Positions 541 through 20,363 of a stretch of DNA of 21,172 nt are shown piece after piece (positions within the stretch are counted from its first letter, which is position 1; each line of letters begins with the position of its first letter). The notes below the pieces were generated by a model that was not told the DNA's origin, made no database searches, and saw nothing but the letters and a program-made list of their open reading frames with translations. The position numbers were made by a program, and so were the translations under genes. Source of the stretch: Alteromonas naphthalenivorans (GTDB taxonomy: Bacteria; Babelota; Babeliae; Babelales; CAIQNR01). The DNA is taken from NCBI GenBank assembly GCA_047631715.1, contig JBLICC010000014.1, positions 1-21,172 on the forward strand. The letters are read 5' to 3'.

Positions 541-696
541 TAAGGGTCCCTCGATACAACGTTTATTGCATTCACGCCACTCGGGATGAACCAATTATCT
601 GCTCTTTTATAAAAGTAAGTTATAAAGTTCATCCCGTCCTTCGATACAATTTCTACGAAATAACTCAGGATAAAATCTTGCATCGAGGGATCCTTA
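541..696. repeat. REP/MITE-like palindromic cassette 1 (three repeat units, one nested)
   Basis: Outer inverted repeat TAAGGGTCCCTCGATACAA (541-559) / TTGCATCGAGGGATCCTTA (678-696), 17/19 match. Inner perfect IR CGGGATGAAC (582-591) / GTTCATCCCG (627-636). Extra unit at 637-670. Confidence 0.9.
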
Positions 697-828
697 TAAA
701 AAATATGCAAACTGTTTCTTATTGTACTATGTAAGCGTGTAAGTAAGAGAGCGTGGCGCTTTGTATTTTATAAAACTGTGCCCATTTGAATCATGTTATT
801 TTAGCTTATAATCTTTCTATAAATCTTT

Positions 829-858
829 TTGACAAGGGGGTTAAAAAACTGTTAATGT
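829..858 (+). promoter_or_regulatory. Putative sigma70 promoter for the acylphosphatase-like gene
   Basis: TTGACA (829-834), 18-nt spacer ending in TGn, TAATGT (853-858). Confidence 0.5.
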
Positions 859-905
859 TGGTGCCTAAATATGCAGTTTTATACCTTAAAAAAGGGGAGT
901 TTTGC

Positions 906-1187
906 ATGAACCAGTGCTTACGCATTATGTTCGAAGTTCCAAGTGAGAAAAAAAAGACCATTCGTTCGCTTATCCAGGAAGAAGCAAAAAAATTAATTTT
1001 AGAGGGTACGGTGCGTATAATGCCCGGTTCCAATCTAAAAGTAATTGCTTGTGGAAACAAACATAAAATGGATATGTTCCTTGATGTTGTCCTTAAAGAA
1101 GTTTCCAAAGCTCAGTGTGATGGACTAGAAATTGAACCATTTTTAAAAGATCGTGACTACCGGGGGGTATTCCGAGTTATTGAATAG
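906..1187 (+). CDS. Acylphosphatase-fold protein (93 aa), catalytic residues degenerate
   Basis: ATG 906 follows AAGGGGAG, so it is preferred over TTG 786. Pattern R-x5-A-x2-L-x-L-x-G-x-V-R-x2-P-x5-V-x-A-x-G and the size match AcyP. Confidence 0.7.
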   Translation: MNQCLRIMFEVPSEKKKTIRSLIQEEAKKLILEGTVRIMPGSNLKVIACGNKHKMDMFLDVVLKEVSKAQCDGLEIEPFLKDRDYRGVFRVIE

Positions 1188-1210
1188 GGCAAAAATTATA
1201 AGTGGGGGTG

Positions 1211-1239
1211 TTGCGTTTTTATATGAGATCGAGTAAATT
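1211..1239 (+). promoter_or_regulatory. Putative sigma70 promoter for leader plus ABC operon
   Basis: TTGCGT (1211-1216), 17 nt, TAAATT (1234-1239). Confidence 0.5.
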
Positions 1240-1275
1240 TACTATCTAAGCTACTTTATTAGAAAGGATCCGAAC

Positions 1276-1308
1276 ATGGTAATTGTAATCTCTGCTAAAA
1301 TAACCTGA
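1276..1308 (+). CDS. Candidate leader peptide MVIVISAKIT
   Basis: SD-like GAAAGGA at 1262-1268, ATG 1276, TGA 1306-1308. Its 3' end overlaps a predicted stem-loop. Confidence 0.45.
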   Translation: MVIVISAKIT

Positions 1309-1514
1309 ATCGTACAGCGAAAGGCTGTCCAAGGTTAAGTCGATTTAGAACTTCAGTTCTATTTGTTTTTTTATCAATCTTGGTACTTTTCAGGACTTTC
1401 TCTTTTTCGGGCTTACACAGCTCAAACTTACAAAATTTTAGAATGTTTTAATTTAATTACTACGCGTATTGTCACGTCTATTTGTACGTACGTGTTTTAT
1501 AGGGAGGCTGATCT

Positions 1515-2291
1515 ATGAGCAAAATATTGTTAGACATCAAAGGTGTCACTAAACGTTATCAAAGTAAAAACCTGTCTGTTGAGGCACTCAAGGGCGTTGA
1601 TCTTAAAATCTTTGAAGGAGAAGTTTTTAGCTTGCTCGGTGTAAACGGTGCTGGTAAAACTACATTATCTTCTATTATTGCCACACTTCATCCGGCAACA
1701 TCGGGTGATATTCTAAAAGATGGCATATCTATTTTTGATAATGTTGTTGAATATCGACGAACTATTGGTTTGTGCCCGCAGTCGCCTAATATTGATATGG
1801 GTTTAACACTCGAAGAAAACTTGCGTTATTCCGGACGGTATTATGGTATGGATAGCGAAAAAATAGAAGAACGTATTACGTATCTTATGAAACGATTTGG
1901 TATGGAAAAATATGCAAAATCGCTAGGAGATATTTTATCTGGTGGTTATAAGCAACGGTTTATGATTGCACGTTCATTAATGCATGAGCCAAAGTTGGTA
2001 ATTCTTGATGAACCAACTGTGGGTCTTGATCCACATGTTCGTCGAGATATTTGGGAAGTTATCAAAGACTTAAAGAAAGATGGTACTACGGTTCTTTTAA
2101 CAACTCACTATCTTGATGAGGCTGAAAAGCTTTCTGACAGAGTATGTTTGTTAGATCGTGGTGTTATTCAGTTGATTGATACCCCTGAAAATCTTAAAGC
2201 AGCGCATGGCAAGGCAAATCTTGAAGATGTGTTTGTAAAGTTGATTAAAGAGAGCGAAAAATCTCAAGAAGAAGAAAGCAATAAAAACTAA
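1515..2291 (+). CDS. ABC-2 type exporter ATP-binding subunit (DrrA/NodI-like)
   Basis: Walker A GVNGAGKTT, signature LSGGYKQR, Walker B ILDEPTVGLDP, H-loop TTHY, and RBS GGGAGG. Confidence 0.93.
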   Translation: MSKILLDIKGVTKRYQSKNLSVEALKGVDLKIFEGEVFSLLGVNGAGKTTLSSIIATLHPATSGDILKDGISIFDNVVEYRRTIGLCPQSPNIDMGLTLEENLRYSGRYYGMDSEKIEERITYLMKRFGMEKYAKSLGDILSGGYKQRFMIARSLMHEPKLVILDEPTVGLDPHVRRDIWEVIKDLKKDGTTVLLTTHYLDEAEKLSDRVCLLDRGVIQLIDTPENLKAAHGKANLEDVFVKLIKESEKSQEEESNKN

Positions 2292-2304
2292 GAAAGGGTT
2301 AAGT

Positions 2305-3084
2305 ATGTTATCAAGTATTTCTACCTGTTTTAATTTGGTTCGAAGAGACATGCATGTCTTTTGGCCAACATTTTTTGATCGATTTATTAATGGTACCATT
2401 TGGGTGGTATTAACGGTTGTTATTTTTCAATACGTGTTTCCTCAAATGGGAATGTCTGAAGACTATGCGGTGTTTATGGCGTGTGCCAACTGTATGACGT
2501 GGGGATTTTTTGAAGTGATGGGAAACGTCGCAATATTGGTGAGCGATTTAACAGGGCCACGTTCTATTGACTATGATCTTACATTACCATTGCCGCAATG
2601 GTTGGTGTTTACTCGTCTTGCAATTTCTAATGCGCTTCAAGCAATGGCTATTGCATTGTTTATTTTACCTATTTCAAAGCTGGTATTATGGCAACAATTT
2701 AGTTTCGCAACAATATCGTTTGGTAAGTTTTCAGTTATTTTTGTCTTAGGAAATATATTTTACGGATTCTTTTCTTTGTGGCTAGCAAGTATCACCAAGA
2801 ATATGGATGCTATTACAAATGTTTGGATGCGTGTGGTATTCCCTCTTTGGTGGGTTGGTGGCTACCAATTTAGTTGGGGAACTATGAACAAGATGGCTCC
2901 ATGGTTTGCCAAACTTACTTTGCTCAATCCATTGGTCTATGCATTTGAAGGCATTAGAGCTTCGATTCTTGGACAAGGAGAGTTTATTAATGTTTGGCAT
3001 TGCGCAGGAGCACTGATTATAGCTTCTATAATTGTTGGCTATATTGGTACCAAAAAGATGATGGCACGCTTGGATTGTGTATAG
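2305..3084 (+). CDS. ABC-2 type transporter permease
   Basis: About 6 hydrophobic segments, LNPLVYAFEGIR motif, directly after the ATPase. Confidence 0.88.
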   Translation: MLSSISTCFNLVRRDMHVFWPTFFDRFINGTIWVVLTVVIFQYVFPQMGMSEDYAVFMACANCMTWGFFEVMGNVAILVSDLTGPRSIDYDLTLPLPQWLVFTRLAISNALQAMAIALFILPISKLVLWQQFSFATISFGKFSVIFVLGNIFYGFFSLWLASITKNMDAITNVWMRVVFPLWWVGGYQFSWGTMNKMAPWFAKLTLLNPLVYAFEGIRASILGQGEFINVWHCAGALIIASIIVGYIGTKKMMARLDCV

Positions 3085-3877
3085 GATGACATATACAATT
3101 ATTGCAGGTGCAAGAGTATTTTATTATTTGATTCAAAGAGATTTAAAGAATTTTTTACCAAATTTGATTACAAAAGTTATTAATGGATCTCTTTGGATTT
3201 TTTTAACAGCCTTTGTGGCGCAACATATACTTACTCTTGAGGGTATGCCAAAAACTTTTGGATTACTTGTTATGTGCGCTAATATTATGAGTTGGGGTAT
3301 GTTTGAAATGCGAGGGCAAGTTAATAAATTGATGGCCGATATTAAAGGTTTTCGAACTCTTAATTATTTTCTTACTTTGCCATTACCGCAATGGCTTATT
3401 TTTGTAGCCCTTGCTTGTGCGGCTAGCTTGCGTTCAATAATCGTTGCTGTATGTATATTTCCTGTTGCAAAGATACTATTTTGGAATGAATTGACTCTTT
3501 TATCTGTTGCATGGGGAAAATTTTTTGCAATTTTTATAGTAGGTAATTTTATGTATGGATTTGTAGGATTATGGCTCTTGAGTCTAGCAAAAGATATGGG
3601 AACAGTATCTAATATTTGGATGCGAATTGTATTTCCATTGTGGTTAGGTGGAGGATATCAATTTACTTGGTCAATGCTTAAAGCGGCTTCTCCAGTTGCT
3701 GCTTATGTTTCTCTTTTAAATCCTCTTGTTTATGCGTATGAAGGAGTTCGGGGAGCAGTATTAGGTTCTGAAGGGTATATTAATTTTTGGTATTGTTTAG
3801 GTGCGATTATCGTATTTACACTATTGAGTGGATATTTTGGTATTAAGCGATTAATGAACCAATTAGATTGTTTATAA
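3077..3877 (+). CDS. ABC-2 type transporter permease, paralog of the upstream permease (start GTG 3077 or ATG 3086)
   Basis: Shares LTLPLPQWL, WMRxVFPLW, GGYQFxW, LLNPLVYAxEGxR and C-terminal LDC with the preceding gene. Confidence 0.88.
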   Translation: MYRMTYTIIAGARVFYYLIQRDLKNFLPNLITKVINGSLWIFLTAFVAQHILTLEGMPKTFGLLVMCANIMSWGMFEMRGQVNKLMADIKGFRTLNYFLTLPLPQWLIFVALACAASLRSIIVAVCIFPVAKILFWNELTLLSVAWGKFFAIFIVGNFMYGFVGLWLLSLAKDMGTVSNIWMRIVFPLWLGGGYQFTWSMLKAASPVAAYVSLLNPLVYAYEGVRGAVLGSEGYINFWYCLGAIIVFTLLSGYFGIKRLMNQLDCL

Positions 3878-3887
3878 TAGTTTAACG

Positions 3888-4032
3888 AGCCCTCGATACA
3901 AGTCCTCTAAGGTGTCTCTCGATACAACCGCTTTCGGCGCCCACTCGAGATGAGCTTTATACTCTATTATTGCAATGATGAAATTAATTTGTTCATCACG
4001 AGTGATTTCGTAGAAATTGTATCGAGGGACTC
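3888..4032. repeat. REP/MITE-like palindromic cassette 2 between convergent genes
   Basis: Partial unit 3888-3901, full + unit 3914-3955, full - unit 3991-4030. GTCTCTCGATACAA pairs with TTGTATCGAGGGAC, and CACTCGAGATGAGC pairs with GTTCATCACGAGTG. Confidence 0.9.
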
Positions 4033-4049
4033 ATTTAAGTTTTTAAAAT

Positions 4050-4799
4050 CTACCTTCTATTAGAATAGGCATGAGCAATATTAATTGCTGCGCCTGCAAG
4101 ATCAACTTTAAACTGGTTGTCTTGAGTTGTATGTATATTGTTCATAGTTTGCGCATTGCATTCTTGTAACCAGCGAGCATCTTGTTTAACAACGAGCATA
4201 GCGGTATCAACTTTTTTAAGGTTGCTTACTAGTGCAGCTCTAATACTATCAAAATTACGCTTTGGTCGTTTGGTATTAAATCGTGTGGTAATGTCTAAAA
4301 GATGTGTAAGAGCGTTGCGTAAAGTAGTAAGTTGCACAAAAGAAGCTGCTCGTGGAAAACGTTCTACAACATATTTTGCATCAAGATTATTTAAAACTTC
4401 TTCGTTTGTTTCGCTTGTAAGTACGAGATCAAGAAGGCCATTTTCGTTTGCTCTTTGAGCTGATACTTCTGGTTTAAATTCACCAGCTAGCCAAGTTGCA
4501 ACAAATCCTGTTACCACAGGAGTAGTAACACACTGTGCTTTAGTCCAGTCTTTGATATTTAACAAATTTATTGGTTCATAGTTTGGATAAAAAATATTTT
4601 CAATTGCGCGTGTAAGAATAAAAGTATATGCGCCAGCAATAAGGCCGATAGATGCTGCTCCTGCTTGAGATCCAAGAGGTAAGTCGATAAACGAAGTATC
4701 GTAATTTTCCGCAACAAGATTAAGACTGTTAGTGTCTTCTGCTTGTAATGTTTGTTGCGAACAGGCAAAAATAAGAGTTGCGAGTAGTATTTTTTTCAT
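4050..4799 (-). CDS. Hypothetical exported/membrane protein
   Basis: 249-aa ORF with signal peptide MKKILLATLIFACSQQTLQA, two weakly hydrophobic segments and RBS AAGGGA. No family recognised. Confidence 0.75.
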   Translation of the reverse strand: MKKILLATLIFACSQQTLQAEDTNSLNLVAENYDTSFIDLPLGSQAGAASIGLIAGAYTFILTRAIENIFYPNYEPINLLNIKDWTKAQCVTTPVVTGFVATWLAGEFKPEVSAQRANENGLLDLVLTSETNEEVLNNLDAKYVVERFPRAASFVQLTTLRNALTHLLDITTRFNTKRPKRNFDSIRAALVSNLKKVDTAMLVVKQDARWLQECNAQTMNNIHTTQDNQFKVDLAGAAINIAHAYSNRR

Positions 4800-4842
4800 A
4801 CTGGTTCCCTTGATAGTTTGAGAGTAAAAAAAGTTGGATGTT

Positions 4843-4871
4843 ACTATAGCATCGATAATTTTAACTGTAAA
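4843..4871 (-). promoter_or_regulatory. Putative sigma70 promoter for 4050-4799
   Basis: Minus strand TTTACA, 17 nt ending in TGC, TATAGT. Confidence 0.5.
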
Positions 4872-4918
4872 TAATGGTTAGATGGTTGCTTTCGTGATAC
4901 ACTTCCGCACAAGTTTGA

Positions 4919-7519
4919 TTGTTAATATATGGAACAATAATGCGTACAAGTATAAAACTGTTTATTTTTAGTTGTGTAATGTGGAGTGCGCATGCTCTAC
5001 AAGACATTGACTGGACACTCCGGGCATTGCGTATTCAGGGGGTTTCGTTTGGTAAGCAAAGTTATTATCCATTATATGAGATAGCCAATGGAGATGTTTT
5101 TTCTTATGAACGGCACAAAGAATCTGTTGTAGCTCTTGAACGTGCTTTAAAAACAGAAGGATATTTAGTTGCTCAAGTACATTCTTATTTTAAGTATTAT
5201 AATGATAAAAAAGTACTCGATGTTATTTTAACGATTGACAAAAATCAGTTATTTAAAGTTTCTGAGGTATTTATAAAAGTATTGCCTTCTGAGTTACTAA
5301 CTCCTTTGCAATCAGAGCAGTTGATGGTTCTTATTAAGCATCAATTTATAGATGCATTAAAAAACAAATCTTACACTAATGAGTTGGTAAATCAAAAAGT
5401 AAAAGCTATTAAATTATTTTTAGAGCAACGAGGACTTACATCGAGTCATGTTGAATTACACGAATCTATCAACAGGCAATCGTTTGAGGTAGTGCTTGAT
5501 TTTTCTATTGATTTAGAAAGAAGTCGATCATTTGAGTTTTTTGGTAACCACTATTTTTCTGCAAAAGATTTAATGCGTATCGTGGCCCATTTTGGTAAAG
5601 ATGCAGGAATGTTGCCGGCAGAGATTTTGGCGCAAGAAGTATTGTCTGAGTATCATAAGAAGGGTTTTTGGAATGCTGCTGTAACCACAACAACCGAAGG
5701 ACAAAAAGATTATTTTGTTATTCACGAGGGGTTGCGGGCCTGTATTAAAAAGGTGATGCTTAAAGGAGTAGAGACGTATCAAAAAGAATGGCTTGAGAAA
5801 AAATTTTTATCTACACTAAAAACAAAACAGTATGATGTAGATAAAGAAAAAAAAGTTTTGAATGGTTTGATAGAGTGGTATCAAGAGCAAGGGTTTTGGG
5901 ATGCTCGTATTTTGCAAAGAAAAAATACGTGTATAAAGGATCAATCTTATACGCTCGAAGTTGTTCTCGATGAAGGAGTTCAGCGTTTTATTAAATCTGT
6001 ACATGTTCGTGATTATCCAGATGTTATGAAGCATCATAGTTTTGCTTATATCAATTATAATAAATATAAAAAAATACCATTTTCACCAGTTATTCTTGCA
6101 GAGCAAAAAGCATACTTAACTAAAATAGTACGATCTCGCGGGTATTTGCATGCTGTTATTGAATACGCATTAGAACAAAAAAAAGATGGGTGGCATGTTG
6201 TCTGGACTCTTAATTATGGTCAGCAAGTAACTTTTGGTAACACAACTATTTGTGGTTATACCAAGGTTCCTCTTTCTTTATTAAAAAAACAATTAGATTA
6301 CCAACCAGGTCAAGTTTGGAGTAAAGAGAAGTTACAGAATACGGTGACACGATTTCGATCATTAGATATTTTTGAGCGAGTACATGTGCGTCCTGTCTAC
6401 ACGCAACATAAGGGCAGCGCACGTGATATTGTAATCACGGTACAAGAGGATGATCCTTTTGAAGTAAAAGTACGCTTGGGATATCAGCAAGTGAGTAAAA
6501 GTTTTGCATTTAAAAAAGAGTCATCGTATCGTGCTGGAGCAATTTGTTTATGGAGAAATCCATTTAAAAAAGCAGATTTATTTTTATTAGATCTTTCATT
6601 TACACGGTTCGATCGCCTTGCTTCTGGAATATATAAAATACCGGTTTCTTTTTTTGTTCCTTGTATGGCAACCATTAAGGGTTATACAAAAAAATATACG
6701 CAGCCTGTATCTGTGGGTTCTCAAAAAACATTGTACGAAACCGATCAAGATGGTTTTTCTATTGGTTTAAGTTCTCATAATAAGCATTTTGATGCGGGGT
6801 GTACGGTTGGCTTGGAGTGGGCAAAAACAAAAAATGTATCTGCTCAATTAGCAAAAGCTATGCGCTTTGAGGCAGACTTGATTGACAAGCGTATTTCTTA
6901 TTTTGTTATTCAGCCAACACTCTATCTTGATTTTCTTAACGATAAACTTAATCCTACCCAAGGCATCTTTGCTTCCCTTTCGCTTAAGGGGATGATGCCG
7001 TTTGAAGAAAGTTCGTATTTAATTAAATTTTTTGCAGAAGAAGGAGTTTTTGTCCCAATGGGTGTATGTACTTTTGCGGGGCGGGTACGCTTTGGTCATA
7101 TTTTTAGAAAAAGCTTTACTGCCATCATGCCACCAGAACGTTTTTATTTGGGGGGGGCACACTCCTTGCGAGGCTATCAAACAGATAAATGCCCACCTCT
7201 CGGTAGTTTTGTGGATGAGGTAGGTCTTACTCAATGGGTACCCCAAGGAGGAAAGTCGATGGTTAATATTAATCTTGAATTGCGTATTCCATTACATAGG
7301 CGAGTGATTCAGGGAGTTGTTTTCCAGGATTTCGGTGCACTGGAAGAAGACGTTCATGTACTCTTTGAGCCTAAAAAACCGTTAGCAGCAACAGGGTTTG
7401 GGTTAAGATACGCAACCCCTATTGGTCCACTTCGATTTGATATTGGGTGGAAATGGAATAAGCAAACTCCCGAAGAAAGTTCATATGCCTGGTTTTTGAC
7501 CTTTGGACATGCTTTTTAA
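4919..7519 (+). CDS. Omp85-family outer membrane protein (BamA/TamA-like); likely start ATG 4940
   Basis: Signal-like N-terminus and POTRA-like repeats (e.g. QEQGFWDARI, RSRGYLHAVI). Barrel motifs RFYLGGAHSLRGY and GFGLRYATPIGPLRFDIG, C-terminal beta-signal WFLTFGHAF. Confidence 0.9.
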   Translation: MLIYGTIMRTSIKLFIFSCVMWSAHALQDIDWTLRALRIQGVSFGKQSYYPLYEIANGDVFSYERHKESVVALERALKTEGYLVAQVHSYFKYYNDKKVLDVILTIDKNQLFKVSEVFIKVLPSELLTPLQSEQLMVLIKHQFIDALKNKSYTNELVNQKVKAIKLFLEQRGLTSSHVELHESINRQSFEVVLDFSIDLERSRSFEFFGNHYFSAKDLMRIVAHFGKDAGMLPAEILAQEVLSEYHKKGFWNAAVTTTTEGQKDYFVIHEGLRACIKKVMLKGVETYQKEWLEKKFLSTLKTKQYDVDKEKKVLNGLIEWYQEQGFWDARILQRKNTCIKDQSYTLEVVLDEGVQRFIKSVHVRDYPDVMKHHSFAYINYNKYKKIPFSPVILAEQKAYLTKIVRSRGYLHAVIEYALEQKKDGWHVVWTLNYGQQVTFGNTTICGYTKVPLSLLKKQLDYQPGQVWSKEKLQNTVTRFRSLDIFERVHVRPVYTQHKGSARDIVITVQEDDPFEVKVRLGYQQVSKSFAFKKESSYRAGAICLWRNPFKKADLFLLDLSFTRFDRLASGIYKIPVSFFVPCMATIKGYTKKYTQPVSVGSQKTLYETDQDGFSIGLSSHNKHFDAGCTVGLEWAKTKNVSAQLAKAMRFEADLIDKRISYFVIQPTLYLDFLNDKLNPTQGIFASLSLKGMMPFEESSYLIKFFAEEGVFVPMGVCTFAGRVRFGHIFRKSFTAIMPPERFYLGGAHSLRGYQTDKCPPLGSFVDEVGLTQWVPQGGKSMVNINLELRIPLHRRVIQGVVFQDFGALEEDVHVLFEPKKPLAATGFGLRYATPIGPLRFDIGWKWNKQTPEESSYAWFLTFGHAF

Positions 7520-7532
7520 TGGTACAAAATCT

Positions 7533-7561
7533 TTGCTTTCGGGGTCAAAAGGAGCTATATT
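7533..7561 (+). promoter_or_regulatory. Putative sigma70 promoter for the membrane protein-potABCD operon
   Basis: TTGCTT (7533-7538), 17 nt, TATATT (7556-7561). Confidence 0.45.
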
Positions 7562-7603
7562 CAGGTTTATTAAAGAAAGAAAACCTTTAACTAGAGGGGC
7601 TTT

Positions 7604-8272
7604 ATGAAAACAGCCACAGATAAAAATTTTATGGATATGGTCAATCATGAGATGATTTGTCATTTTCCTTATGCCGTATTATCGGTTGCGTTAAGTATGA
7701 TCGCAGCAGGAATTTTAGGCTATTCATCGGTTGATCCTATTCCTGGAGTAGTTGATAAAGGAGCTATGGTATTGTTTCATAGTTGCCATTTTTTACATAT
7801 TGTATTTGCAGCCACCGGTGCAGTTCTTACATTTTTTAGATATTCTAATGAAGTACTTAAAGGTCTTATAGTTGGAGCAGTTTCAGCCATAGTATTTTGT
7901 ATTTTATCCGATGTTATTTTGCCTTATTTAGTTGGTGAAATGATGGGTATACCAATGGAGCTACATATTTGCTTTCTTTCTGAGTTAAGTAATGTTTTAC
8001 CATTCTTGCTCGTTGGTGTATTTAATGGTTGGTTATTGAGCCAGAATAAATCAGGACAACAAAGTTTCTTTTCTATCTGGTCTCATTTTGCACATATTTT
8101 TGTAAGTGCTTTGGCTTCCATGTTATATACCATTTCTCATGGTATGCATGATTGGTACAATTATATGGGTATTTTGTTTATATTACTTATTGTTGCAGTT
8201 GTAATTCCATGTACATTATCTGATGTTGTGGTGCCTGCTTATTTTGCTCGTATGGGTAGAAAACAAAAATGA
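7604..8272 (+). CDS. Uncharacterised polytopic membrane protein with duplicated HxxH and CxLSDxxxP motifs
   Basis: About 6 TM segments. HFLHIVFAA..CILSDVILP and HFAHIFVSA..CTLSDVVVP. RBS GAGGGG. ATGA overlap with potA. Confidence 0.8.
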   Translation: MKTATDKNFMDMVNHEMICHFPYAVLSVALSMIAAGILGYSSVDPIPGVVDKGAMVLFHSCHFLHIVFAATGAVLTFFRYSNEVLKGLIVGAVSAIVFCILSDVILPYLVGEMMGIPMELHICFLSELSNVLPFLLVGVFNGWLLSQNKSGQQSFFSIWSHFAHIFVSALASMLYTISHGMHDWYNYMGILFILLIVAVVIPCTLSDVVVPAYFARMGRKQK

Positions 8273-9360
8273 AAAATATTTATCTTAAAAAGGTAAATAA
8301 ATCTTTTGAAGGTGAACCGGTTTTAGAAAATATTAATCTTACGGTTCCTGAAGGAAAGTTCTTTGCCTTGCTGGGCCCAAGTGGTTGTGGCAAAACAACA
8401 ATTTTAAGACTTATTGCTGGATTTGAAAAGCCTGATTCGGGAACTATTAGTTTGGGTGATACTAATATTACCGATATTCCTAGTAATAAACGTAAGATTA
8501 ATACGGTATTTCAAAATTATGCACTTTTTCCTCATATGAATGTATTTGAAAATGTGGCGTATGGTTTGCGACTTAAAAATTTAGAACAAAGTATTGTTAA
8601 AAATCGAGTTCAAAAAATTTTAAAAACTGTTCGCCTTGAGCATCAGATGTATAAACCGATACATCAACTTTCTGGTGGTCAGCAGCAACGGGTAGCATTA
8701 GCACGTGCTATTATTAATGAACCAGAAGTTTTATTACTTGATGAACCATTGGCAGCGCTTGATGTTAAGTTGCGTGAGCACATGCTTATTGAGTTAATAG
8801 ATCTACAAGAAACTATTAAAACAACTTTTGTATATATTACGCACGATCAAACAGAAGCGCTTACGGTTGCCGATAAAATGGCGATTATGAATCATGATGG
8901 AGAAATCGAGCAAATTGGGACTCCGCAAGAGATTTATGAATTTCCTGTTTCTTCTTTTGTAGCGCAGTTTGTAGGTAAAACTAATTTATTTAGAGGTACC
9001 TTGCGTATTCATGGAGATGTTCCAACTGTTGATGTTTCTGATCTGGGTAGATTTTCTGTCTTTATTTCTGCAAAGTGTGAATGGATGGTAGAAGATAGAC
9101 CAGTACTTTTAGGTGTTCGACCAGAAAAAATTTGGATAAGTAAAAAACCTGTAGAAGGTTTTTCTAATCATGTTATTGGTAAGGTTGAATCCATTGTCTA
9201 TCATGGCCCAGCAACACAATATAATGTTCGTTTAAAGAACGATCAAAAAGTTCAAGTCTTTGAACAAAACGAAGAGCATTTTGCAAAAGACAAAATAGAT
9301 TATGATGATGAAGTGCATTTATATTGGCAAAAAGAGAATGCGATGGTATTAGAAAAATGA
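8269..9360 (+). CDS. potA: Spermidine/putrescine-type ABC importer ATP-binding protein
   Basis: GPSGCGKTT, VFQNYALFPHM, LSGGQQQRVALARA, LLDEPLAALD, THDQTEAL and a C-terminal TOBE-like region; context potABCD. Confidence 0.9.
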   Translation: MKNIYLKKVNKSFEGEPVLENINLTVPEGKFFALLGPSGCGKTTILRLIAGFEKPDSGTISLGDTNITDIPSNKRKINTVFQNYALFPHMNVFENVAYGLRLKNLEQSIVKNRVQKILKTVRLEHQMYKPIHQLSGGQQQRVALARAIINEPEVLLLDEPLAALDVKLREHMLIELIDLQETIKTTFVYITHDQTEALTVADKMAIMNHDGEIEQIGTPQEIYEFPVSSFVAQFVGKTNLFRGTLRIHGDVPTVDVSDLGRFSVFISAKCEWMVEDRPVLLGVRPEKIWISKKPVEGFSNHVIGKVESIVYHGPATQYNVRLKNDQKVQVFEQNEEHFAKDKIDYDDEVHLYWQKENAMVLEK

Positions 9361-10226
9361 AAAAGAAGTTTTTTTCTTCTAACACATCATTTTTTTGGGG
9401 AGTGGTTGCTTTAATATGGCAAGTCATTTTCTTTTACATTCCTCTTTCGTTTCTTGTTGCTACTAGTTTTGTTGCTTTTGTTCCTTCTATTAGCGCTTCT
9501 CGTTTTACACTCATACATTACATTCAATTATGTAAGCCAATATATGCGTTGATTTTTTTACGATCATTTTCGCTTGCACTTTCTACAGTTATTATCACGC
9601 TTTTAATTGCTTATCCGGTTGCCTACTATTTGGCCATTAAAGTAAAACGTTGGAAAGAATTTCTTTTTGCGCTCCTGGTATTGCCTTTCTGGACTAATTT
9701 TTTATTACTTGTGTATGCCTGGTATTTTTTATTAGAAAACGACGGTCTTATTAATAGTTTATTATTAAAGTGTGGTTTAATTAGTTCCCCCATATATTTG
9801 ATGAATACTACGTTTGCTGTATACATTGGCATGGTCTATTGTTACTTGCCGTTTATGTTATTGCCACTCTATTCAACGCTAGAAAAATTTAATGTTAAGT
9901 TGCTCGAAGCTTCGGCAGATTTGGGTGCTACCTATTGGCAGACATTTAGAAACATTGTATTACCTCTTACTTGGCCTGGTATTAAAACCGGTGCAATCTT
10001 AGTATTTGTACCTGCTTTTGGAGAGTTTGTGATTCCTGCCCTTTTGGGTGGTGATAAAAATATGTATGTAGGGTCAGTGATTACTCATTATTTTTTAACC
10101 ATCAGAAACGTTTCTCTTGGTTCTGCATTTACCTGCTTAAGTGTGATGGTGCTATTTTTATTCTTATTTATCTTATTTGGAATGGTTAAATTGTTTGCTC
10201 ACATAAGAAAGGGCACAGATGTTTAA
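9357..10226 (+). CDS. potB: Spermidine/putrescine-type ABC importer permease
   Basis: AYPVAY, LPFWTNFL, YLPFMLLPLY and EAA loop LLEASADLGA. ATG 9357 overlaps the potA stop (ATGA). Confidence 0.88.
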   Translation: MKKKFFSSNTSFFWGVVALIWQVIFFYIPLSFLVATSFVAFVPSISASRFTLIHYIQLCKPIYALIFLRSFSLALSTVIITLLIAYPVAYYLAIKVKRWKEFLFALLVLPFWTNFLLLVYAWYFLLENDGLINSLLLKCGLISSPIYLMNTTFAVYIGMVYCYLPFMLLPLYSTLEKFNVKLLEASADLGATYWQTFRNIVLPLTWPGIKTGAILVFVPAFGEFVIPALLGGDKNMYVGSVITHYFLTIRNVSLGSAFTCLSVMVLFLFLFILFGMVKLFAHIRKGTDV

Positions 10227-10995
10227 GAATGCATTTGAGCGTTTAGCTTTGCCTTTGTGGGTAAGTTTAACCTATTTGTTTTTGTATATTCCTATTATTG
10301 TACTTATTGTATTTTCTTTTAATTCCATCGCGTTTCCGTACCATTGGGAAAGTTTTTCTTTGCATTGGTATCATGAGCTTTTTGCAGCGGCTGATTTATG
10401 GAAAGCTGCTTACAACTCTTTGTTTGTGGGTTTAAGTACTGTTTTTTTAAGTTTGGTTATTAGCCTTTTTTTTGTGATGTGGAACGCCAGCAGAAAAGAT
10501 AATTTTCTGCTGGCGTTTTTTTATCCTAATCTTGTTGTACCAGAAATTATTTTGGCAGTTGGATTATTAAGTTTCTTTATATTTTTTAATGTACCGTTAA
10601 CGCTTGGCACTTTAATTGTGGGTCATACGTTGCTTGGATTAGGGTATGCTATTCCTATTTTGCACGAAAGTTTTTCGAGCATTGACGAACGGCTTGTCGA
10701 AGCATCATTAGATTTGGGTGCAACATCAACTCAAACATTTTTTAAAATTATTATTCCTATATTAACACCGTCATTAATTGCAGCAGGATTATTGGTATTT
10801 ATTTTGTCGTTAGATGATTTTTTGATTGCATTCTTTTGTGCCGGATCAGGTTCGCAAACGTTGTCTCTGTATATTTTTGCCATGATTAGAACAGGAGTGT
10901 CTCCTGAGGTTAATGCTCTTGCAACATTAATGATTGTGGTTAGTAGTTTATTAGTCTTCTTGTTCTGTTCTGTACGAGTAAGGGAGCAAGAATGA
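10219..10995 (+). CDS. potC: Spermidine/putrescine-type ABC importer permease
   Basis: FLYIPIIVLIVFSFN, FSLHWY, EASLDLGA, SLDDF, GVSPEVNALAT. Confidence 0.9.
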   Translation: MFKNAFERLALPLWVSLTYLFLYIPIIVLIVFSFNSIAFPYHWESFSLHWYHELFAAADLWKAAYNSLFVGLSTVFLSLVISLFFVMWNASRKDNFLLAFFYPNLVVPEIILAVGLLSFFIFFNVPLTLGTLIVGHTLLGLGYAIPILHESFSSIDERLVEASLDLGATSTQTFFKIIIPILTPSLIAAGLLVFILSLDDFLIAFFCAGSGSQTLSLYIFAMIRTGVSPEVNALATLMIVVSSLLVFLFCSVRVREQE

Positions 10996-12071
10996 TAATT
11001 AGTCGTACTCTTATAATAAGAACACTTATGGTGATCTTTTGGATGGGTATTATTTCTGCCTATTTATATACGGGTAGAGTTGTAAAATATTTTAAGCCAG
11101 CACAGTCGATTAATGTTTTTATGTGGTCTGGGGTAATCGACCCAAAGATGTTTCAAAAGTTTAAAGAAGAAACAGGCATTCATGTTAACGTCAGTTATTA
11201 CGAAGGTAACGAAGAGCTGCTCGTAAAGTTACTGGCAACAAAGGCCAGAGGATACGACATGGTTGTACCTTCTGATTATGTTGTGCAGTTTTTAGTTAAG
11301 CATGATTTACTACACACAATAGATCGATCTAAATTAGATTTTTGGAATGCACTTAATCCTAAATTTATGGGGCATTATTTTGATCCTCATAACAAATACT
11401 CTATTCCTGCTGAATGGTATCTTGAAGGTCTTGGGGTTAACACAGAGCATTTTAAAGAGGGTGAGCTTCCAGAGGCAAGTTGGGCTTCTATTTTTGATCC
11501 AGAAAAAACACCAGATCATATTGGGTTGTTTAATGATAGTCGAGAGCTGTCAGGGCTTGCGGTAAAATATTTGTATGGAAAGTTACGTACAATCAATGCG
11601 CAAGAAGTACAAGAAGTTAAAAAGCTTTTGCAAGAACAAAAAAAGAAAGTAGAGGCGTATACAGATTTTAGGGGTGATTTTTTATTAGAGTCGGGCAATT
11701 GTTCATTGGTAACCGCACCAACTTCCTTCTGGAAGACGTTGCGAGACAATCCTAATATTATTTACTTAATTCCCAAAGAGGGAACGTTCTTAAATCTTGA
11801 AAATTATGTAATTCCCAAGCCATCTCAAAAGGCAGATTTGGTGTATAAATTCTGGAATTTTTTATTTAGATTAGATGTACAAGAGCATAACTTTAATTAC
11901 GGTATATTCTTGTCTACTCGTAAAGATGCGGGTTTTATGTTTGATATTGATCTCTTAAAAACATCAACTCAGCTTATTCATCCTGATGTGGTAGAACAAG
12001 CCGAGATGTTTGAAAATAAATTAACAGACGAACAGATTAACGAAATTTGGCTCGGCGTCAAAGGCTCTTAA
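10992..12071 (+). CDS. potD: PotD/PotF-family substrate-binding protein with N-terminal membrane anchor
   Basis: FKEETGIHV, NEELLVKL, GYDMVVPSDY, FDPHNKYSIP, NDSRE, PKEG. Last gene of the pot cluster. Confidence 0.85.
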   Translation: MIISRTLIIRTLMVIFWMGIISAYLYTGRVVKYFKPAQSINVFMWSGVIDPKMFQKFKEETGIHVNVSYYEGNEELLVKLLATKARGYDMVVPSDYVVQFLVKHDLLHTIDRSKLDFWNALNPKFMGHYFDPHNKYSIPAEWYLEGLGVNTEHFKEGELPEASWASIFDPEKTPDHIGLFNDSRELSGLAVKYLYGKLRTINAQEVQEVKKLLQEQKKKVEAYTDFRGDFLLESGNCSLVTAPTSFWKTLRDNPNIIYLIPKEGTFLNLENYVIPKPSQKADLVYKFWNFLFRLDVQEHNFNYGIFLSTRKDAGFMFDIDLLKTSTQLIHPDVVEQAEMFENKLTDEQINEIWLGVKGS

Positions 12072-12764
12072 TTATTTTCTAATTAAGTTTCCTTCTGGTG
12101 TAATAATAGATCCACCTTGAGTCATATTGAAAATGTTACTTTTAGCATTAAGATTTTTTCCAAGATCGATTGCGCCTGTAAGGTCAATGGTGCCTCCATT
12201 AGGAAAGAATGCTCCAGATTGGATTTTTGCATTAGTGAAAACTGCTTTCTTAAGATTAATACTTCTTTTAGCAAGAGTTGTAGATGCATTTTGAAATACT
12301 CCGCCGGCATTGAATGTGGATGCTTCTATTGTTGTTTCTTTGAATTTTGCACCTTGAGCATTAATCGTTCCTCCATTAACTAAAAAAGAATTTTTAGAAA
12401 GCATTGCTTTGTGAAAATTTGCTTTTTTAAGAGATACACATTGAGAATTTAATATACTATAATGCGTACCTTTTGATTTTAAAGATAGTTGATATCCCTG
12501 ACAAGAGAAAGCATTAGGTAATATCTGTGCTCCTGAATAATTGGCATTATTGAGATTGATGATTTTGCAAACATCTTTATATGCGTGCATCTCTTTCATT
12601 ACTGGAAGGAACTTTTTATTAATTATACAGTTTGTATAATCACGATTCTTTTTATTTTTGTATTCGCATGATTTTTGTGTTGGTGAGTTTTTTGCAAGTA
12701 CTGCATCTATATGCGTGATGCTCAATCCCAATAATCCTAGTAATAATAACTTCTTTATTCTCAT
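12072..12764 (-). CDS. Secreted pentapeptide-repeat-like protein
   Basis: Signal peptide MRIKKLLLLGLLGLSITHIDA; blocks NLNNANYSGAQI, SLKKANFHKAML, NAQGAKFKETTI, NLKKAVFTNAKI. Confidence 0.7.
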   Translation of the reverse strand: MRIKKLLLLGLLGLSITHIDAVLAKNSPTQKSCEYKNKKNRDYTNCIINKKFLPVMKEMHAYKDVCKIINLNNANYSGAQILPNAFSCQGYQLSLKSKGTHYSILNSQCVSLKKANFHKAMLSKNSFLVNGGTINAQGAKFKETTIEASTFNAGGVFQNASTTLAKRSINLKKAVFTNAKIQSGAFFPNGGTIDLTGAIDLGKNLNAKSNIFNMTQGGSIITPEGNLIRK

Positions 12765-12903
12765 TTCCCTTTTTATCCCTGTTTATTTAACCTTACAAAT
12801 ATTGATACTCTTTTTAGATTAGCAAATTGCATATTTTAAAATCAATAATAATATTTCTCTGAGCTTATATTGAGTATGTTTAGCCTTAAGTTTTTGTAGG
12901 ACT

Positions 12904-12932
12904 TTGAGCATTTTTGTGTTTTGCGGTATTAT
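12904..12932 (+). promoter_or_regulatory. Putative sigma70 promoter for metG
   Basis: TTGAGC (12904-12909), 17 nt, TATTAT (12927-12932). Confidence 0.45.
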
Positions 12933-12969
12933 AAGCTCCAGATATCGTTTTAAACTTATTCGGTGAGGA

Positions 12970-13012
12970 CCCTTCGATACAACCACCTGCGGTGGCCACT
13001 CAGGGTGATTCG
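12970..13012 (+). repeat. Single intact unit of the structured repeat family, in the metG leader
   Basis: CCCT-TCGATACAA-CCACC-TGC-GGTGG-CCACTC-AGGG-TGATTCG. Confidence 0.88.
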
Positions 13013-13035
13013 AGGTGAAATAGAAAGGCCTACTT

Positions 13036-14940
13036 GTGAATAATAAATTTTATGTGACAACTCCCATTTACTACGCAACTGCAACTCCGCATCTTGGAAC
13101 CTTGTATTCAACCGTATTGGCAGACATTGCTGCTCGTTGGAATAAGATCCAAGGAAAAGATGTTTTCTTTTTAACCGGAACCGATGAGTTTGGGCAAAAA
13201 GTTGCTCAAGCAGCAGAAAAAGTTAATCAAGATCCCAAAGCATTTGTGAGTCAGTTTATTCCTGCTTATAAAGAGTTATGGAAAAAGTATGAGATCGATT
13301 ATTCACATTTTATTAGAACCACTGATGAGTATCATATACAAGCTGTGCAAAAATGGCTTGGTGATCTAGAAGCAAAAGGTGATATTTATAAAGGTGCGTA
13401 TGAAGGTTGGTATTGTACACCGTGCGAAACCTATCTAACCGAAAAAGATTTTGAAGCAGGTACTAAAAATCCAGCATGTGTATCGTGCGAGCGAGCAACA
13501 CAATGGGTTTCTGAGCCGTGTTACTTCTTTAAGCTTTCTGCATATCAAGATAAATTATTAAAGTTTTTCGAAGAAAATCCAAACTTTATTACTCCTAAAG
13601 AACGATTTGCAGAAGTTATCTCTTTTGTAAAAGGTGGCTTGCAAGATTTGAGTATTTCTAGAACAACACTTTCTTGGGGTGTACCGTTTCCTAACGATAA
13701 AGACCATGTTACCTATGTATGGGCCGATGCGTTGAATAACTATTTAACCGGTATTGGGTATAACCAAGACGGTAAGCAAGAAGAGTTTAAAAAGTGGTGG
13801 CCTGCAGATTTACAAGTGCTTGGTAAAGATATTGTACGGTTTCATGCAATTTTTTGGCCTGCGTTTTTGATGGCGTCTGATTTGCCATTACCTAAAAAAT
13901 TATTAGTGCATGGTTGGATCAAAATGGGTGATCATAAGATGTCAAAATCTCGTGGTAACAGTGTTGATCCACAAGATTTGTATAAAATATATGGTCCAGA
14001 TTCTGTACGTTACTATTTGGCACGTCAGCTATCTATAGCACAAGATGGACAGTTTACCGTTGCAGATTTAGAACAAAAAATTACGTCTGATCTGGCAAAT
14101 GATTTGGGTAACTTGTTACAGCGTATGGTTTCTCTTGCTACAAAAAATAAAGTAACAGAAGTTACACCAAGTACATGGGGTGACGACGAGCAAGGGTTGC
14201 AAGAACATGCTCAAGATATGATTGAGTCATTTAAAAAAGAAATGGAACGTGGTTATTACCATATGGCGTTGTCGCATTTATGGAAATTTATTAATGCGGT
14301 GAATGCATATTTTCATGCATCGGAGCCATGGAAGCTTGCAAAGACTGAACCAGAAAGATTTATGACGGTGTTGAGTGCTACGTGTCATAGTTTGCATATG
14401 ATTGCAACAATGTTGTGGCCGGTAATGCCAGAAAAAATGGAAGAACTTTTTAAGCGTCTTGGCTATACGTTTAAAGTAAATGATGATAAAGTTTTGGGGC
14501 TTGTTAATGATGAGTGGAATAAAAGTTTTACTTTAACAATGGGTGACCCACTTTTTAGTAAACCTGAGCCACGCAAAGAAGAACAAGAGCCAGCAATAGA
14601 GAAGGAGTCGTATATCGATATCGAAGACTTTATAAAAGTAGATCTACGGGTAGGAACCATCAAAGAATGCGAAGTTGTAGAAAAGTCAGAAAGACTTTTG
14701 AAATCGCAAGTTGATTTGGGTCCAGAGCTGGGTGTTCGCCAAATATTTTCTGGTATCAAAAAATGGTATACGCCAGAAGAATTAATTGGCAAGCAAGTAA
14801 TAGTTGTTGCAAATTTAAAACCGAGAAAAATGATGGGTGAACTGTCGCAAGGTATGATTTCGCTTGCTGATGGAGAGGATGGAAAGCCAACATTAATTAG
14901 TCCGGTTATGCAGCTACCAAATGGAGCAAAATTAAAATAG
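13036..14940 (+). CDS. metG: Methionine--tRNA ligase with C-terminal tRNA-binding domain
   Basis: YVTTPIYY, HIGH-like PHLGT, LTGTDEFG, Zn knuckle CTPC/CVSC, YVWADAL, GKDIVRFH, KMSKS and C-terminal VANLKPRKMMGELSQGM. GTG start with RBS GAAAGG. Confidence 0.97.
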   Translation: MNNKFYVTTPIYYATATPHLGTLYSTVLADIAARWNKIQGKDVFFLTGTDEFGQKVAQAAEKVNQDPKAFVSQFIPAYKELWKKYEIDYSHFIRTTDEYHIQAVQKWLGDLEAKGDIYKGAYEGWYCTPCETYLTEKDFEAGTKNPACVSCERATQWVSEPCYFFKLSAYQDKLLKFFEENPNFITPKERFAEVISFVKGGLQDLSISRTTLSWGVPFPNDKDHVTYVWADALNNYLTGIGYNQDGKQEEFKKWWPADLQVLGKDIVRFHAIFWPAFLMASDLPLPKKLLVHGWIKMGDHKMSKSRGNSVDPQDLYKIYGPDSVRYYLARQLSIAQDGQFTVADLEQKITSDLANDLGNLLQRMVSLATKNKVTEVTPSTWGDDEQGLQEHAQDMIESFKKEMERGYYHMALSHLWKFINAVNAYFHASEPWKLAKTEPERFMTVLSATCHSLHMIATMLWPVMPEKMEELFKRLGYTFKVNDDKVLGLVNDEWNKSFTLTMGDPLFSKPEPRKEEQEPAIEKESYIDIEDFIKVDLRVGTIKECEVVEKSERLLKSQVDLGPELGVRQIFSGIKKWYTPEELIGKQVIVVANLKPRKMMGELSQGMISLADGEDGKPTLISPVMQLPNGAKLK

Positions 14941-14971
14941 GTAAGAGACGTTTTAAAAAAAGAGAGTAAGT

Positions 14972-16843
14972 ATGAAGATTTCAAGATTGCCGCACTATAT
15001 GAAACGGCTCACAGAATTGGGTCCTCTTAAAGCTGCAGAAGTAATTTCTCATCGTATGCATATCTCTTTCTTTGAGCAGTATGCGCGGTATCAAGCAGAT
15101 CAAAAAAGGTCTGCTATTACGTGGCCATTATTTGCTCAAAAATATAAACTGGGTGATTTTCCTACGTTTTTTAATCAACTTAAAAAGCGTTCATTTATTG
15201 CAAGCAAAGATTTGTATGCTACAGAACTCAAAGATGAAAAAGAGTTAATGCGTCAGGCAGCTGCTTTTTCTCATAATTGTTTTGATATTTTAGGTTCTAG
15301 AGAGCAGTGTTTAATTACGTTGCCATGGCATAGTGATTTTAGATTGCAATATCAACATCCAGATGCCGATTATCTTTTTGATAAAAATAAATTTTACAAA
15401 GATATTGCTATTCAATCAGGGCTTACCGATCGTTTGGTAAAAGATATTAAAGTGCCTTGGGAGCTTTCTCGACTACAACATTTGTTTGTAATGGGTGCAG
15501 CGTTTGAACGTGGTAAAGATCCTATGTATGCGCGTGCATTTGAACAACATGTTGCAGACTTCTTAGATGAAAACCCATTCTTGCTTGGTCCAAATTGGAT
15601 GTGTCCAATGGATGTTGGCATTCGTACACTTAATTTAGTTTGGGCGTTTCATTTCTTTAAAGATTCAGAAGATATTAGTGATATTTTTTGGAAACGTTTT
15701 GTGTGTTCTTTATATGATCATATGCACTATTTAGAAAACAACTGGGAAATTTATTCTGTAACATCTAATCATTATCTTTCTGACTTGATAGGTTATTTTT
15801 ATGTTACCTGGTTATTCCATGACATGCCGGGTGTAGCTAAAAAGCATAAGTGGTGTTACAACGAAATTTTAAAAGAGTTTGATAAGCAGGTATTTGAAGA
15901 AGGAACGGATTATGAAGGATCTACTAATTATCATAAATTAGTTACTGAGATTTTTTATAATTTCTATCTGATTTGCCAAGAATCTAACTTACCATTACCA
16001 AAAAGATTTTTGAAAAAACTTAAAAAAATGTTCTCATTTATAGATTGGTGTGCAGTTAATGATACTGATTTAGTTAAAATTGGCGATGATGATTCGGGTA
16101 AGATTTTACATTATGGCATTCCGCGTACTTTGGTAAACGAAATGCAAGAAGAATGTGCTTTAACGGAAAAGTTCTATAAAAACTTTGGTCTTGCTGTTAG
16201 AAAAACAAAAGAGTGGCATATCACTTTGCGTCATCATGCTTATAAATCTTTGCAGCCGTCTGGCCATTTTCATAACGATATTGGCAGTGTAACACTTGCT
16301 GTAGATGGTATTGCTGTTGTGGTTGACCCAGGATCGTATGTGTACACTCCATCAGAGGTATGGCGAAATAAATTTAGATCAGCTTCTGCTCATAATGGAT
16401 TTTTTATAGAAGATATAGAACCGATTCTGTTTGATGAGCAACTATTGTTTAATCTTGCATTACCAGAAAAAAAATCATCTGATACTCCATGGCAAGTAAC
16501 GCATGATTTATACAGTATTCCTGCAACACGTGTCCTTGAGCTTGATCAAAAGAAGAATCATGTTCTATTAACTGACTCGTGGGATGAAGTACCCGTACAA
16601 GCATTTACAAGTGTATGGAACTTTACTCTTGCTCCTGGTATCGAAGCTACTAAAAAGGGCGATGACTGGTCTTTGAGTAAAGATGGTAAAGTACTCTTGG
16701 TGTTGCACACAGAAGATCTTGATTTTTGTCTTGAGAAAAGTTGGTATTCTCCAAGTTATGGTACTAAAGTTGCATGCAAAAAGTTGGTTGCTAAATCTGC
16801 TCTTAGCACTCAACCCGTACGGATATTCTTTAAAAAAGTATAG
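14972..16843 (+). CDS. Heparinase II/III-like (polysaccharide lyase fold) protein
   Basis: DIKVPWELSRLQH, NHYLSDLIG, EGSTNYH, GHFHND and DPGSYVYT..RNKFRSASAHN motifs. Confidence 0.85.
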   Translation: MKISRLPHYMKRLTELGPLKAAEVISHRMHISFFEQYARYQADQKRSAITWPLFAQKYKLGDFPTFFNQLKKRSFIASKDLYATELKDEKELMRQAAAFSHNCFDILGSREQCLITLPWHSDFRLQYQHPDADYLFDKNKFYKDIAIQSGLTDRLVKDIKVPWELSRLQHLFVMGAAFERGKDPMYARAFEQHVADFLDENPFLLGPNWMCPMDVGIRTLNLVWAFHFFKDSEDISDIFWKRFVCSLYDHMHYLENNWEIYSVTSNHYLSDLIGYFYVTWLFHDMPGVAKKHKWCYNEILKEFDKQVFEEGTDYEGSTNYHKLVTEIFYNFYLICQESNLPLPKRFLKKLKKMFSFIDWCAVNDTDLVKIGDDDSGKILHYGIPRTLVNEMQEECALTEKFYKNFGLAVRKTKEWHITLRHHAYKSLQPSGHFHNDIGSVTLAVDGIAVVVDPGSYVYTPSEVWRNKFRSASAHNGFFIEDIEPILFDEQLLFNLALPEKKSSDTPWQVTHDLYSIPATRVLELDQKKNHVLLTDSWDEVPVQAFTSVWNFTLAPGIEATKKGDDWSLSKDGKVLLVLHTEDLDFCLEKSWYSPSYGTKVACKKLVAKSALSTQPVRIFFKKV

Positions 16844-16851
16844 TTTTATAT

Positions 16852-17098
16852 GAGTCCCTCGATCCTTCGATACAATTTTTTTCACTATGTTCAAAAAATC
16901 ACTCCCAGGCTTCGCATAAAGCTTCGCCGGACACGGCAGGGTGATTCGGGGTTGTGTTTGTCGAGTCATACTGAGTGAATACGAGTTTACGAGTATTTGT
17001 ATCGAAGTATAAAAGTTATTAAGTTCATCCCGAGTGGTCCAGGACCGAATCATCCTGAGTGATTCCGTTAGGAATTGTATCGAAGGATCGAGGGACTC
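16852..17098. repeat. REP/MITE-like cassette 3 with perfect 26-bp terminal inverted repeats and nested units
   Basis: GAGTCCCTCGATCCTTCGATACAATT (16852-16877) is the exact reverse complement of 17073-17098. Internal units at 16863-16948 (+, interrupted), 16962-17009 (-), 17046-17087 (-) and 17023-17035 (-, partial). Confidence 0.93.
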
Positions 17099-17149
17099 TT
17101 AAAAAATAGTAAGATATTATGAAAATTAACGGCATCGCAATTATATTTC

Positions 17150-17193
17150 AAAAAATATCCACACGAGAGTAATTTTACTACACGTGTGGATAT
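17150..17193 (-). terminator. Intrinsic terminator of the ankyrin gene
   Basis: ATATCCACACG (17155-17165) / CGTGTGGATAT (17183-17193) stem plus inner AGTAA/TTACT, followed by a T run on the minus strand, about 10 nt after the stop. Confidence 0.7.
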
Positions 17194-17202
17194 ACGAAAT
17201 TA

Positions 17203-20338: not shown

Positions 20339-20363
20339 AAAAAAAGGGAACCCAAAGGCTCCC
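20339..20363 (-). terminator. Intrinsic terminator
   Basis: Minus strand GGGAGCC-TTTG-GGTTCCC then T7, 8 nt after the stop of 20372-20662. Confidence 0.85.

Follow-up and report, generated by a model that had tools for sequence, protein, structure and literature searches.

Repeat Units in the Window

The window analyzed here is a 21,172-nucleotide stretch (contig JBLICC010000014.1 of assembly GCA_047631715.1, positions 1 to 21,172 of the forward strand) of a genome deposited as Alteromonas naphthalenivorans and placed by GTDB in the phylum Babelota. It contains a family of dispersed hairpin repeats, each about 45 nt long, that our analysis relates to a small predicted GIY-YIG nuclease encoded in other genomes of the phylum. 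A sequence-only reading of the window had listed eight near-complete units, and all eight are present. Each comprises an unpaired head, a variable stem (the arm), a fixed internal motif, an inner hairpin, and a tail; two subtypes differ in the end of the head (AGTCA or AATCA in type A, GTTCA or GCTCA in type B). The strand given for a unit is the one on which it reads head-first, the likely folded strand.

A type B unit with a TCCC/GGGA arm (546-589, minus strand) forms the left half of a heads-in dimer whose spacer is 39 nt long (590-628). It is followed by an outer type B unit (627-693, plus) with its head at 627-636 and a decayed tail at 680-693; enclosed in it is an inverted type A unit with a TCCT/AGGA arm and a degenerate head end (636-673, minus). 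A second heads-in dimer consists of type B units at 3914-3953 (minus; TCTC/GAGA) and 3993-4030 (plus; one arm mismatch), separated by a 39-nt spacer (3954-3992); a partial copy at 3889-3902 (minus) retains the tail half only. A single type A unit with a CCCT/AGGG arm (12969-13008, minus) lies just upstream of a gene at 13036 that, in our own reading of its sequence, encodes a methionyl-tRNA-ligase-like protein.

The last cluster opens with what is left of the tail of an outer type B unit (16854-16861, minus) and with a type A unit (16862-16944, minus). The latter, which the sequence-only reading listed among the near-complete units, is split between arm and tandem GA by a 33-nt insert (16905-16937, plus); the insert belongs to another hairpin family, whose members start with CCAG. 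In the TCCT/AGGG arm of the interrupted unit, one pair is not Watson-Crick. Next come a type A unit with a TACT/AGTA arm and a second GA/GA tandem in its inner hairpin (16966-17010, plus) and an outer type B unit (17023-17098, plus; head at 17023, tail 17087-17098) that encloses a type A unit with a TCCT/AGGA arm and a C-GTTA-G loop (17050-17088, plus). Three bases at the junction are common to the tails of the nested and the outer unit. Two of the listed units, those at 636-673 and 17050-17088, are present not as free-standing copies but each within an outer copy of the other subtype.

Genome-Wide Copies and Covariation

The genome (845 kb in 58 contigs, 90% complete; the window is contig C14) holds copies far beyond the window. 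A pattern built from the eight units matched 80 times, leaving 79 full units once one spurious long duplicate was dropped, and five dinucleotide shuffles gave 0, 0, 0, 0, and 1 matches; the core 9-mer occurs 110 times, compared with 2-9 times in shuffles.

Covarying arms were counted with a script, on units anchored by sequence. With anchors blind to pairing, the arms of 68 of 83 copies are fully Watson-Crick paired (mean 15.4, maximum 28 with shuffled partners), and double substitutions occur at each of the four arm pair positions, as had been claimed from the window alone. Six fully paired arm types are found in the genome (TCCT/AGGA, TCCC/GGGA, TCTC/GAGA, TACT/AGTA, CCCT/AGGG, and TTTC/GAAA), together with a bulged-A variant in nine copies; among 123 distinct copies from other genomes, 97 have fully paired arms, of 14 types. 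Because copies within a type are related, the independent evidence for covariation is the number of arm types, six here and 14 elsewhere. The compensatory mutations noticed earlier are real but define subfamily types rather than independent events. The repeats are a real, structurally constrained family, and one that no Rfam covariance model matched in the window, either at the gathering score or at E values up to 10; over 16 related loci the sole Rfam match was an Acido-Lenti-1 copy (L209:149-194), far from the flanks of the gene there.

Fold and Strand

Sequence and covariation together give the following anatomy on the strand opposite to the one read earlier: an unpaired head ending in TCA leads into a variable stem of 4-5 bp, a tandem GA/GA, a G-C pair, a fixed GTG/TTGTA internal loop, a variable inner hairpin of 12-24 nt, and a short tail. 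The inner hairpin is often capped by GNA, GNNA, or AAA and often has a further GA/GA. Where a tandem GA lies between a pyrimidine and a purine, it forms stable sheared pairs, and the GA/GA pairs of the element are predicted to be sheared.

In a strand-neutral alignment of the stems of the inner hairpins, G·T pairs outnumber A·C pairs by 46 to 1 on the opposite strand, and there the nested second tandem reads GA/GA in 19 copies and TC/TC in none. The 60 distinct caps include 11 GNA, 14 GNNA (9 GNYA and 5 GNRA), and 12 AAA; 31 are triloops, none is of the GNA/GNNA kind on the strand read earlier, and UNCG is absent from both strands. GNA/GNNA caps also make up 47 of 114 in other genomes. For GNA triloops and GTTA, both mini-hairpin loops, a far higher stability in DNA than in RNA has been described (PMC13037366). 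Finally, single units in co-oriented spacers are split 4:4 in their orientation to transcription. The G·T excess and the nested GA/GA make the reverse complement of the strand read earlier the likely folded strand, and the DNA mini-hairpin caps and the lack of orientation bias favor DNA over RNA as the folded molecule. Of the original proposal, selection on a single-stranded RNA or DNA structure with an invariant internal loop, the fold and its fixed internal motif are supported; the strand is probably the other one, on which the supposed TC/TC loop is the tandem GA/GA.

A Predicted GIY-YIG Nuclease Bracketed by the Element in Relatives

The sequence-only reading had suggested a trans-acting protein, with an HUH/RAYT transposase or a GIY-YIG nuclease as candidate genes to look for beside the repeats. 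The first found no support, with no match to Y1_Tnp (HUH/RAYT) in the genome; the second did, in relatives. From 517 GIY-YIG matches in the phylum, 90 genes were surveyed (30 loci and 60 further high-ranking ones, a few at contig ends being skipped), and these form three clades in a quick tree: A (60 genes), B (19), and C (11). A flank descriptor written from the units of the window's genome, which matches 1.75% of shuffled flanks, was found on both flanks with heads outward at 40 of 60 clade A genes and on at least one flank at 48. It was on neither flank of any of the 19 clade B genes; among the 11 clade C genes it was never on both flanks and twice on one.

The association also holds outside this set. 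Among 70 metagenome loci with long flanks (of 80), 41 have the element on both sides and 62 on at least one; for relatives of a Flavobacteriales genome the figures are 7 and 10 of 17 (3.5% in shuffles). Such hairpins were also recognized by eye in the flanks of genes from Sphingomonas, where they form an inverted pair, and Methylobacterium; none were seen by eye in the flanks of Bacillus yazA or of a broken copy in Sphingomonas paeninsulae. A Bacteroidota subgroup of the enzyme (L213, L215, L216, L218, L222, and L224) has GA/GA hairpin flanks with other heads, which the descriptor misses.

The clade A protein has about 95 residues and is assigned to GIY-YIG by Pfam; no NCBIfam family exceeded its cut-off for the six proteins tried. 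The closest PDB sequences are the UPF0213 proteins 1zg2 and 1ywl, and a structure model matches these two and Slx1. All 30 sequences compared retain the two motif tyrosines (Y7 and Y17 in L019 numbering), the Arg, the His, and the Glu (E64). Up to five copies of the gene are present in one genome, at unrelated locations, and its distribution within genera is patchy.

A narrow element pattern, with no control matches in most genomes, is found in 62 of 151 genomes of the phylum. The clade A gene is present in 26 of 35 genomes with at least 10 copies, 12 of 27 with 1-9 copies, and 11 of 89 with none, a trend for which Fisher's p of 5e-11 is an overstatement, kin not being independent and the alignment deriving from the same set. 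Most heads at clade A genes in the phylum begin CCG; heads like those of the window's genome flank clade A genes at two loci (L122 and L123). Among GTDB representatives, the exact type A head pattern of the genome turns up in three stretches, of which one, in an Akkermansia gene, is a chance match.

The CCAG family is inserted at one and the same point of the element, between the arm and the tandem GA, in nine cases (seven pattern matches and two by eye). Besides the insert in the window, examples lie on contigs C1, C6, C8, C10, C23, and C37, and the family is once inserted in itself. Clade B genes have a tRNA 3' end upstream in 14 of 19 cases, mostly followed by hairpins similar to this family.

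Genomic Placement and Mobility

By crude calls of open reading frames (ORFs), the copies form 50 clusters, of which 43 are intergenic (15 convergent, 24 co-oriented, and 4 divergent), 3 lie in ORFs, and 4 are at or near contig ends. There is no replication-strand bias by local GC skew (38 versus 41) and no enrichment at contig ends, with one clear case. Type B dimers are arranged heads-in with an AT-rich spacer of 39-42 nt in 9 of 11 cases, the remaining two containing nested units. Most type A pairs have their heads outward and spacers of 17-27 nt, and look like cassettes that have lost the gene.

Comparison with a congener (G047, about 80% identical; 824 of its approximately 929 kb were covered) bears on mobility. 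The narrow pattern has 77 copies in the window's genome and one in the congener, where about six decayed copies were recognized by eye. Of 23 clusters with both flanks collinear, 20 have no trace of a copy in the congener and three have a trace. The unit at 12969 lies within a 68-nt segment that corresponds to 4 nt there. A whole type B dimer sits in frame in a Mur ligase gene (L269:78-1532; contig C12, approximately 10535-10700), adding 52 residues relative to the orthologue, for which a gain in the window's genome is the simplest reading; at other sites, loss in the congener is possible instead. Single units are in frame in dnaX, at a site that also has a copy in the congener, and in a TonB-like gene. 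Two DNA sequencing runs gave no clean presence/absence junction, only other copies.

Two clusters on contig C3 (23919-23958 and 32990-33108) are flanked by direct repeats of about 20 nt of host sequence (control rate below 1%), possibly the trace of an insertion mechanism. At the window clusters of 16842-17200 and 3880-4050 the congener has intact-looking genes, and a gene remnant remains at approximately 17139-17194, so clusters may mark sites of gene loss.

Two further features of the window are three 183-nt repeats at 7-528, which encode DUF5122 beta-propeller units and are unrelated to the hairpin element, and two near-identical, terminator-like hairpins of 31 nt (20342-20372 and 20686-20716), 344 nt apart around a short ORF.

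Comparison with Known Systems

The nearest published counterpart is the partnership of the single-domain Ssn nucleases with NTS and Ssn-related motif (SRM) hairpin repeats (Chenal et al. 2025; PMC11893778), the only relevant match for a hairpin-nuclease pair that a literature search, mostly of open-access papers, returned. SsnA is described there as binding its hairpin only as single-stranded DNA (ssDNA) of one strand, nicking near the head, and losing activity when the palindrome was changed. The present system resembles it in having a single-domain gene for a protein of about 95 residues with directional hairpins on both sides (in relatives of the window's genome), many gene-less copies, an unpaired head motif, and repeat-rich genomes that lack the gene. 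The invariant Y7, Y17, and E64 of clade A parallel Y6, Y17, and E64 of SsnA, an equivalence taken from motif position without alignment to SsnA. Unlike the SsnA target, the element tolerates compensatory change in its stem and, besides the tandem GA/GA, includes an inner hairpin that varies. No unit fits the published SRM pattern, which gives one unrelated match in the genome; in flanks it occurs at 0 of 60 clade A genes, 1 of 80 metagenome loci, and 0 of 17 Flavobacteriales relatives, compared with 5 of 11 clade C genes. Clade A falls outside the SRM-flanked clade C and is much closer to the UPF0213 structures (6e-15 versus 1e-4), which points indirectly to clade A lying outside cd10448. By analogy, then, the system is likely to work like Ssn/SRM and yet to be distinct from it, since its repeats do not fit the SRM pattern and its enzyme belongs to another clade. 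Novelty is accordingly lower than the earlier reading had implied: the lack of an Rfam match stands, but a similar partnership, with another enzyme clade and another hairpin, has been published. No mention of cd10456, UPF0213, or the core motif occurs in 12 of the 14 supplements of that paper, and its Fig. 5a, on SRMs over all GIY-YIG proteins, may bear on the question.

CGTC-tagged repetitive extragenic palindromic (REP) sequences, with stems of 8-9 bp, loops of 4-5 nt, a CCA-like tail, and, as described, no dedicated enzyme (Di Nocera et al. 2013; PMC3733652), are likewise intergenic hairpins near gene 3' ends that form dimers and clusters and nest with other repeats. Their CGTC, TGTC, or CCTC tag is perhaps echoed by a GTCA-like head in type A copies (AGTCA/AATCA) and Bacteroidota copies (TGTCA), as distinct from GTTCA/GCTCA in type B. 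The 4-5 bp stem, GA/GA, and 12-24-nt inner hairpin set the element apart from them by described sizes, and overlap with one of the four CGTC-REP families, for example through the alphaproteobacterial copies, is possible. As in REP/REPIN systems with RAYT (TnpA-REP, HUH), inverted hairpins bracket an enzyme gene, doublets have a fixed spacer, and recognition of an ssDNA hairpin is proposed; unlike them, the head census has no GTAG tag, the partner is a GIY-YIG protein, and Y1_Tnp is absent from the window's genome, the one searched for it. In-frame residence in conserved proteins (Mur ligase, DnaX, and TonB-like) recalls the Rickettsia palindromic elements, a likeness in placement, although only 3 of 50 clusters lie in ORFs.

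Stand-alone UPF0213/YazA/YhbQ proteins (1zg2, 1ywl) are the closest solved relatives of clade A in sequence and fold. Bacillus yazA lies in an operon with a methyltransferase and has no such hairpins, whereas genes of clade A have a patchy distribution, occur in several copies, and are flanked by the element. Identity with the Flavo-1 repeats was rejected, as the sequences in the supplement differ (PMC2864571). The literature search returned no paper with any of five short core motifs, nothing on intergenic palindromic repeats in Dependentiae, and, among the matches listed, no link of YhbQ to flanking palindromes.

Proposed Function and Alternatives

Our preferred explanation, to which we give a probability of about three in four, is that the repeats are REP-like, lineage-expanded ssDNA hairpins formed by the strand opposite to that first read, and that they are the binding and cutting sites of the UPF0213/YhbQ-like GIY-YIG nuclease of about 95 residues. 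Conservation of structure, strand asymmetry, clade-specific bracketing of the nuclease gene, and presence or absence at orthologous sites are direct observations; because the element brackets the genes of this enzyme in several bacterial phyla, its copies are best read as recognition sites of the enzyme. The clade A enzyme would read the head and GA/GA of the hairpin and, as SsnA does, nick the exposed ssDNA beside the head. Such nicks, once repaired or recombined, might then spread gene-less units, dimers, and the gene cassette, and explain nesting, although this step is the weaker part of the proposal.

Several observations weigh against this explanation. No GIY-YIG gene or remnant was found in the window's genome, at its 90% completeness, the only one of 151 without any GIY-YIG match; uvrC was not found there either but is present in two other genomes (G047 and G102). 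The uvrC absence is probably an assembly gap, and because that gene too is missing from the assembly, the absence of a GIY-YIG gene is not proven; the copies would be orphans, or else the gene is unassembled. The clade A gene occurs in none of 12 family members searched, and 9 of the 35 repeat-rich genomes are without it, including a single-contig genome with 52 copies (G140). Heads in the window's genome are variants compared with the CCG heads, and the exact cognate enzyme is not among the surveyed genes. The protein tree is based on 93 columns, with many forks unresolved. There is no consistent target-site duplication: flanking repeats of about 20 nt occur at 2 of 50 clusters and the rest are at background, very short duplications being below resolution at 80% identity to the congener. 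Nearest-neighbor folding energies are no better than those of shuffles (z from -1.5 to +1.6 in 10 folds), which we tentatively attribute to non-canonical terms missing from the model.

A bolder form of the proposal is tentative and has, in our view, clearly less than an even chance. Here the UPF0213-like GIY-YIG protein would be the mobilizing enzyme of a multi-phylum class of selfish DNA that needs no HUH, DDE, or tyrosine recombinase; it would read a tandem sheared-GA ssDNA shape instead of a stem sequence, spread its own gene and gene-less dimers, and share genomes with two sister systems of nuclease and hairpin, one of them inserting at a fixed position of the element.

Alternatively, the nuclease may recognize the hairpins only to restrict or modulate incoming ssDNA, the spread being passive, through recombination or another enzyme. 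This shares the recognition step with our preferred explanation, and, for a related system, the one role demonstrated in vivo is that of SsnA, which restricts or modulates incoming ssDNA in transformation (PMC11893778). The lack of a fixed target duplication, the nested junctions with short common sequence, which fit recombination, and the repeat-rich genomes without the gene are all in keeping with it. The gene's multiple unrelated locations and patchiness, and the change in copy number from 1 to 77 between congeners, both fit mobility of the cassette. We consider a role limited to restriction or modulation less likely than not.

Selection on the elements as RNA structures (mRNA 3'-end stabilizers, terminators, or protein-bound small RNAs), with a secondary link to the nuclease, appears improbable. 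The clusters do favor gene 3' ends, with few divergent spacers; folding with RNA parameters prefers the same opposite strand in 79 of 79 units; and G·U and tandem GA also stabilize RNA. RNA roles have been proposed for REPs (Di Nocera et al. 2013; PMC3733652). Against this stand the abundance of triloops, the 9:5 ratio of GNYA to GNRA, the absence of UNCG, the 4:4 orientation in co-oriented spacers, the lack of an Rfam match, and the inverted copies on both sides of the nuclease gene, the layout of a DNA element.

That the dimers are miniature inverted-repeat transposable elements moved by a DDE or HUH (RAYT) transposase, with the GIY-YIG gene as passive cargo, is very improbable: the inverted outer ends and fixed spacer of type B dimers do recall REPIN doublets, but Y1_Tnp is missing from the genome (DDE transposases were not searched for), target duplications are not constant, and the three GIY-YIG clades each go with a repeat type of their own, which is not expected of passive cargo.

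Significance

The repeats are likely to be not regulatory RNAs but ssDNA recognition sites of a predicted nuclease. If so, a substrate would be assigned to a large, uncharacterized branch of very small GIY-YIG proteins, and Ssn would be joined by a second family of nucleases that act on ssDNA at specific sites. The target seems to be defined by shape, the stem sequence being free and the GA/GA fixed, a property that would be relevant to ssDNA tools. Within one phylum, the correspondence of three enzyme clades with three repeat types provides built-in negative controls, and what creates and spreads REP-like repeats in the absence of RAYT, a question posed for the CGTC-tagged REPs (PMC3733652), would become testable.

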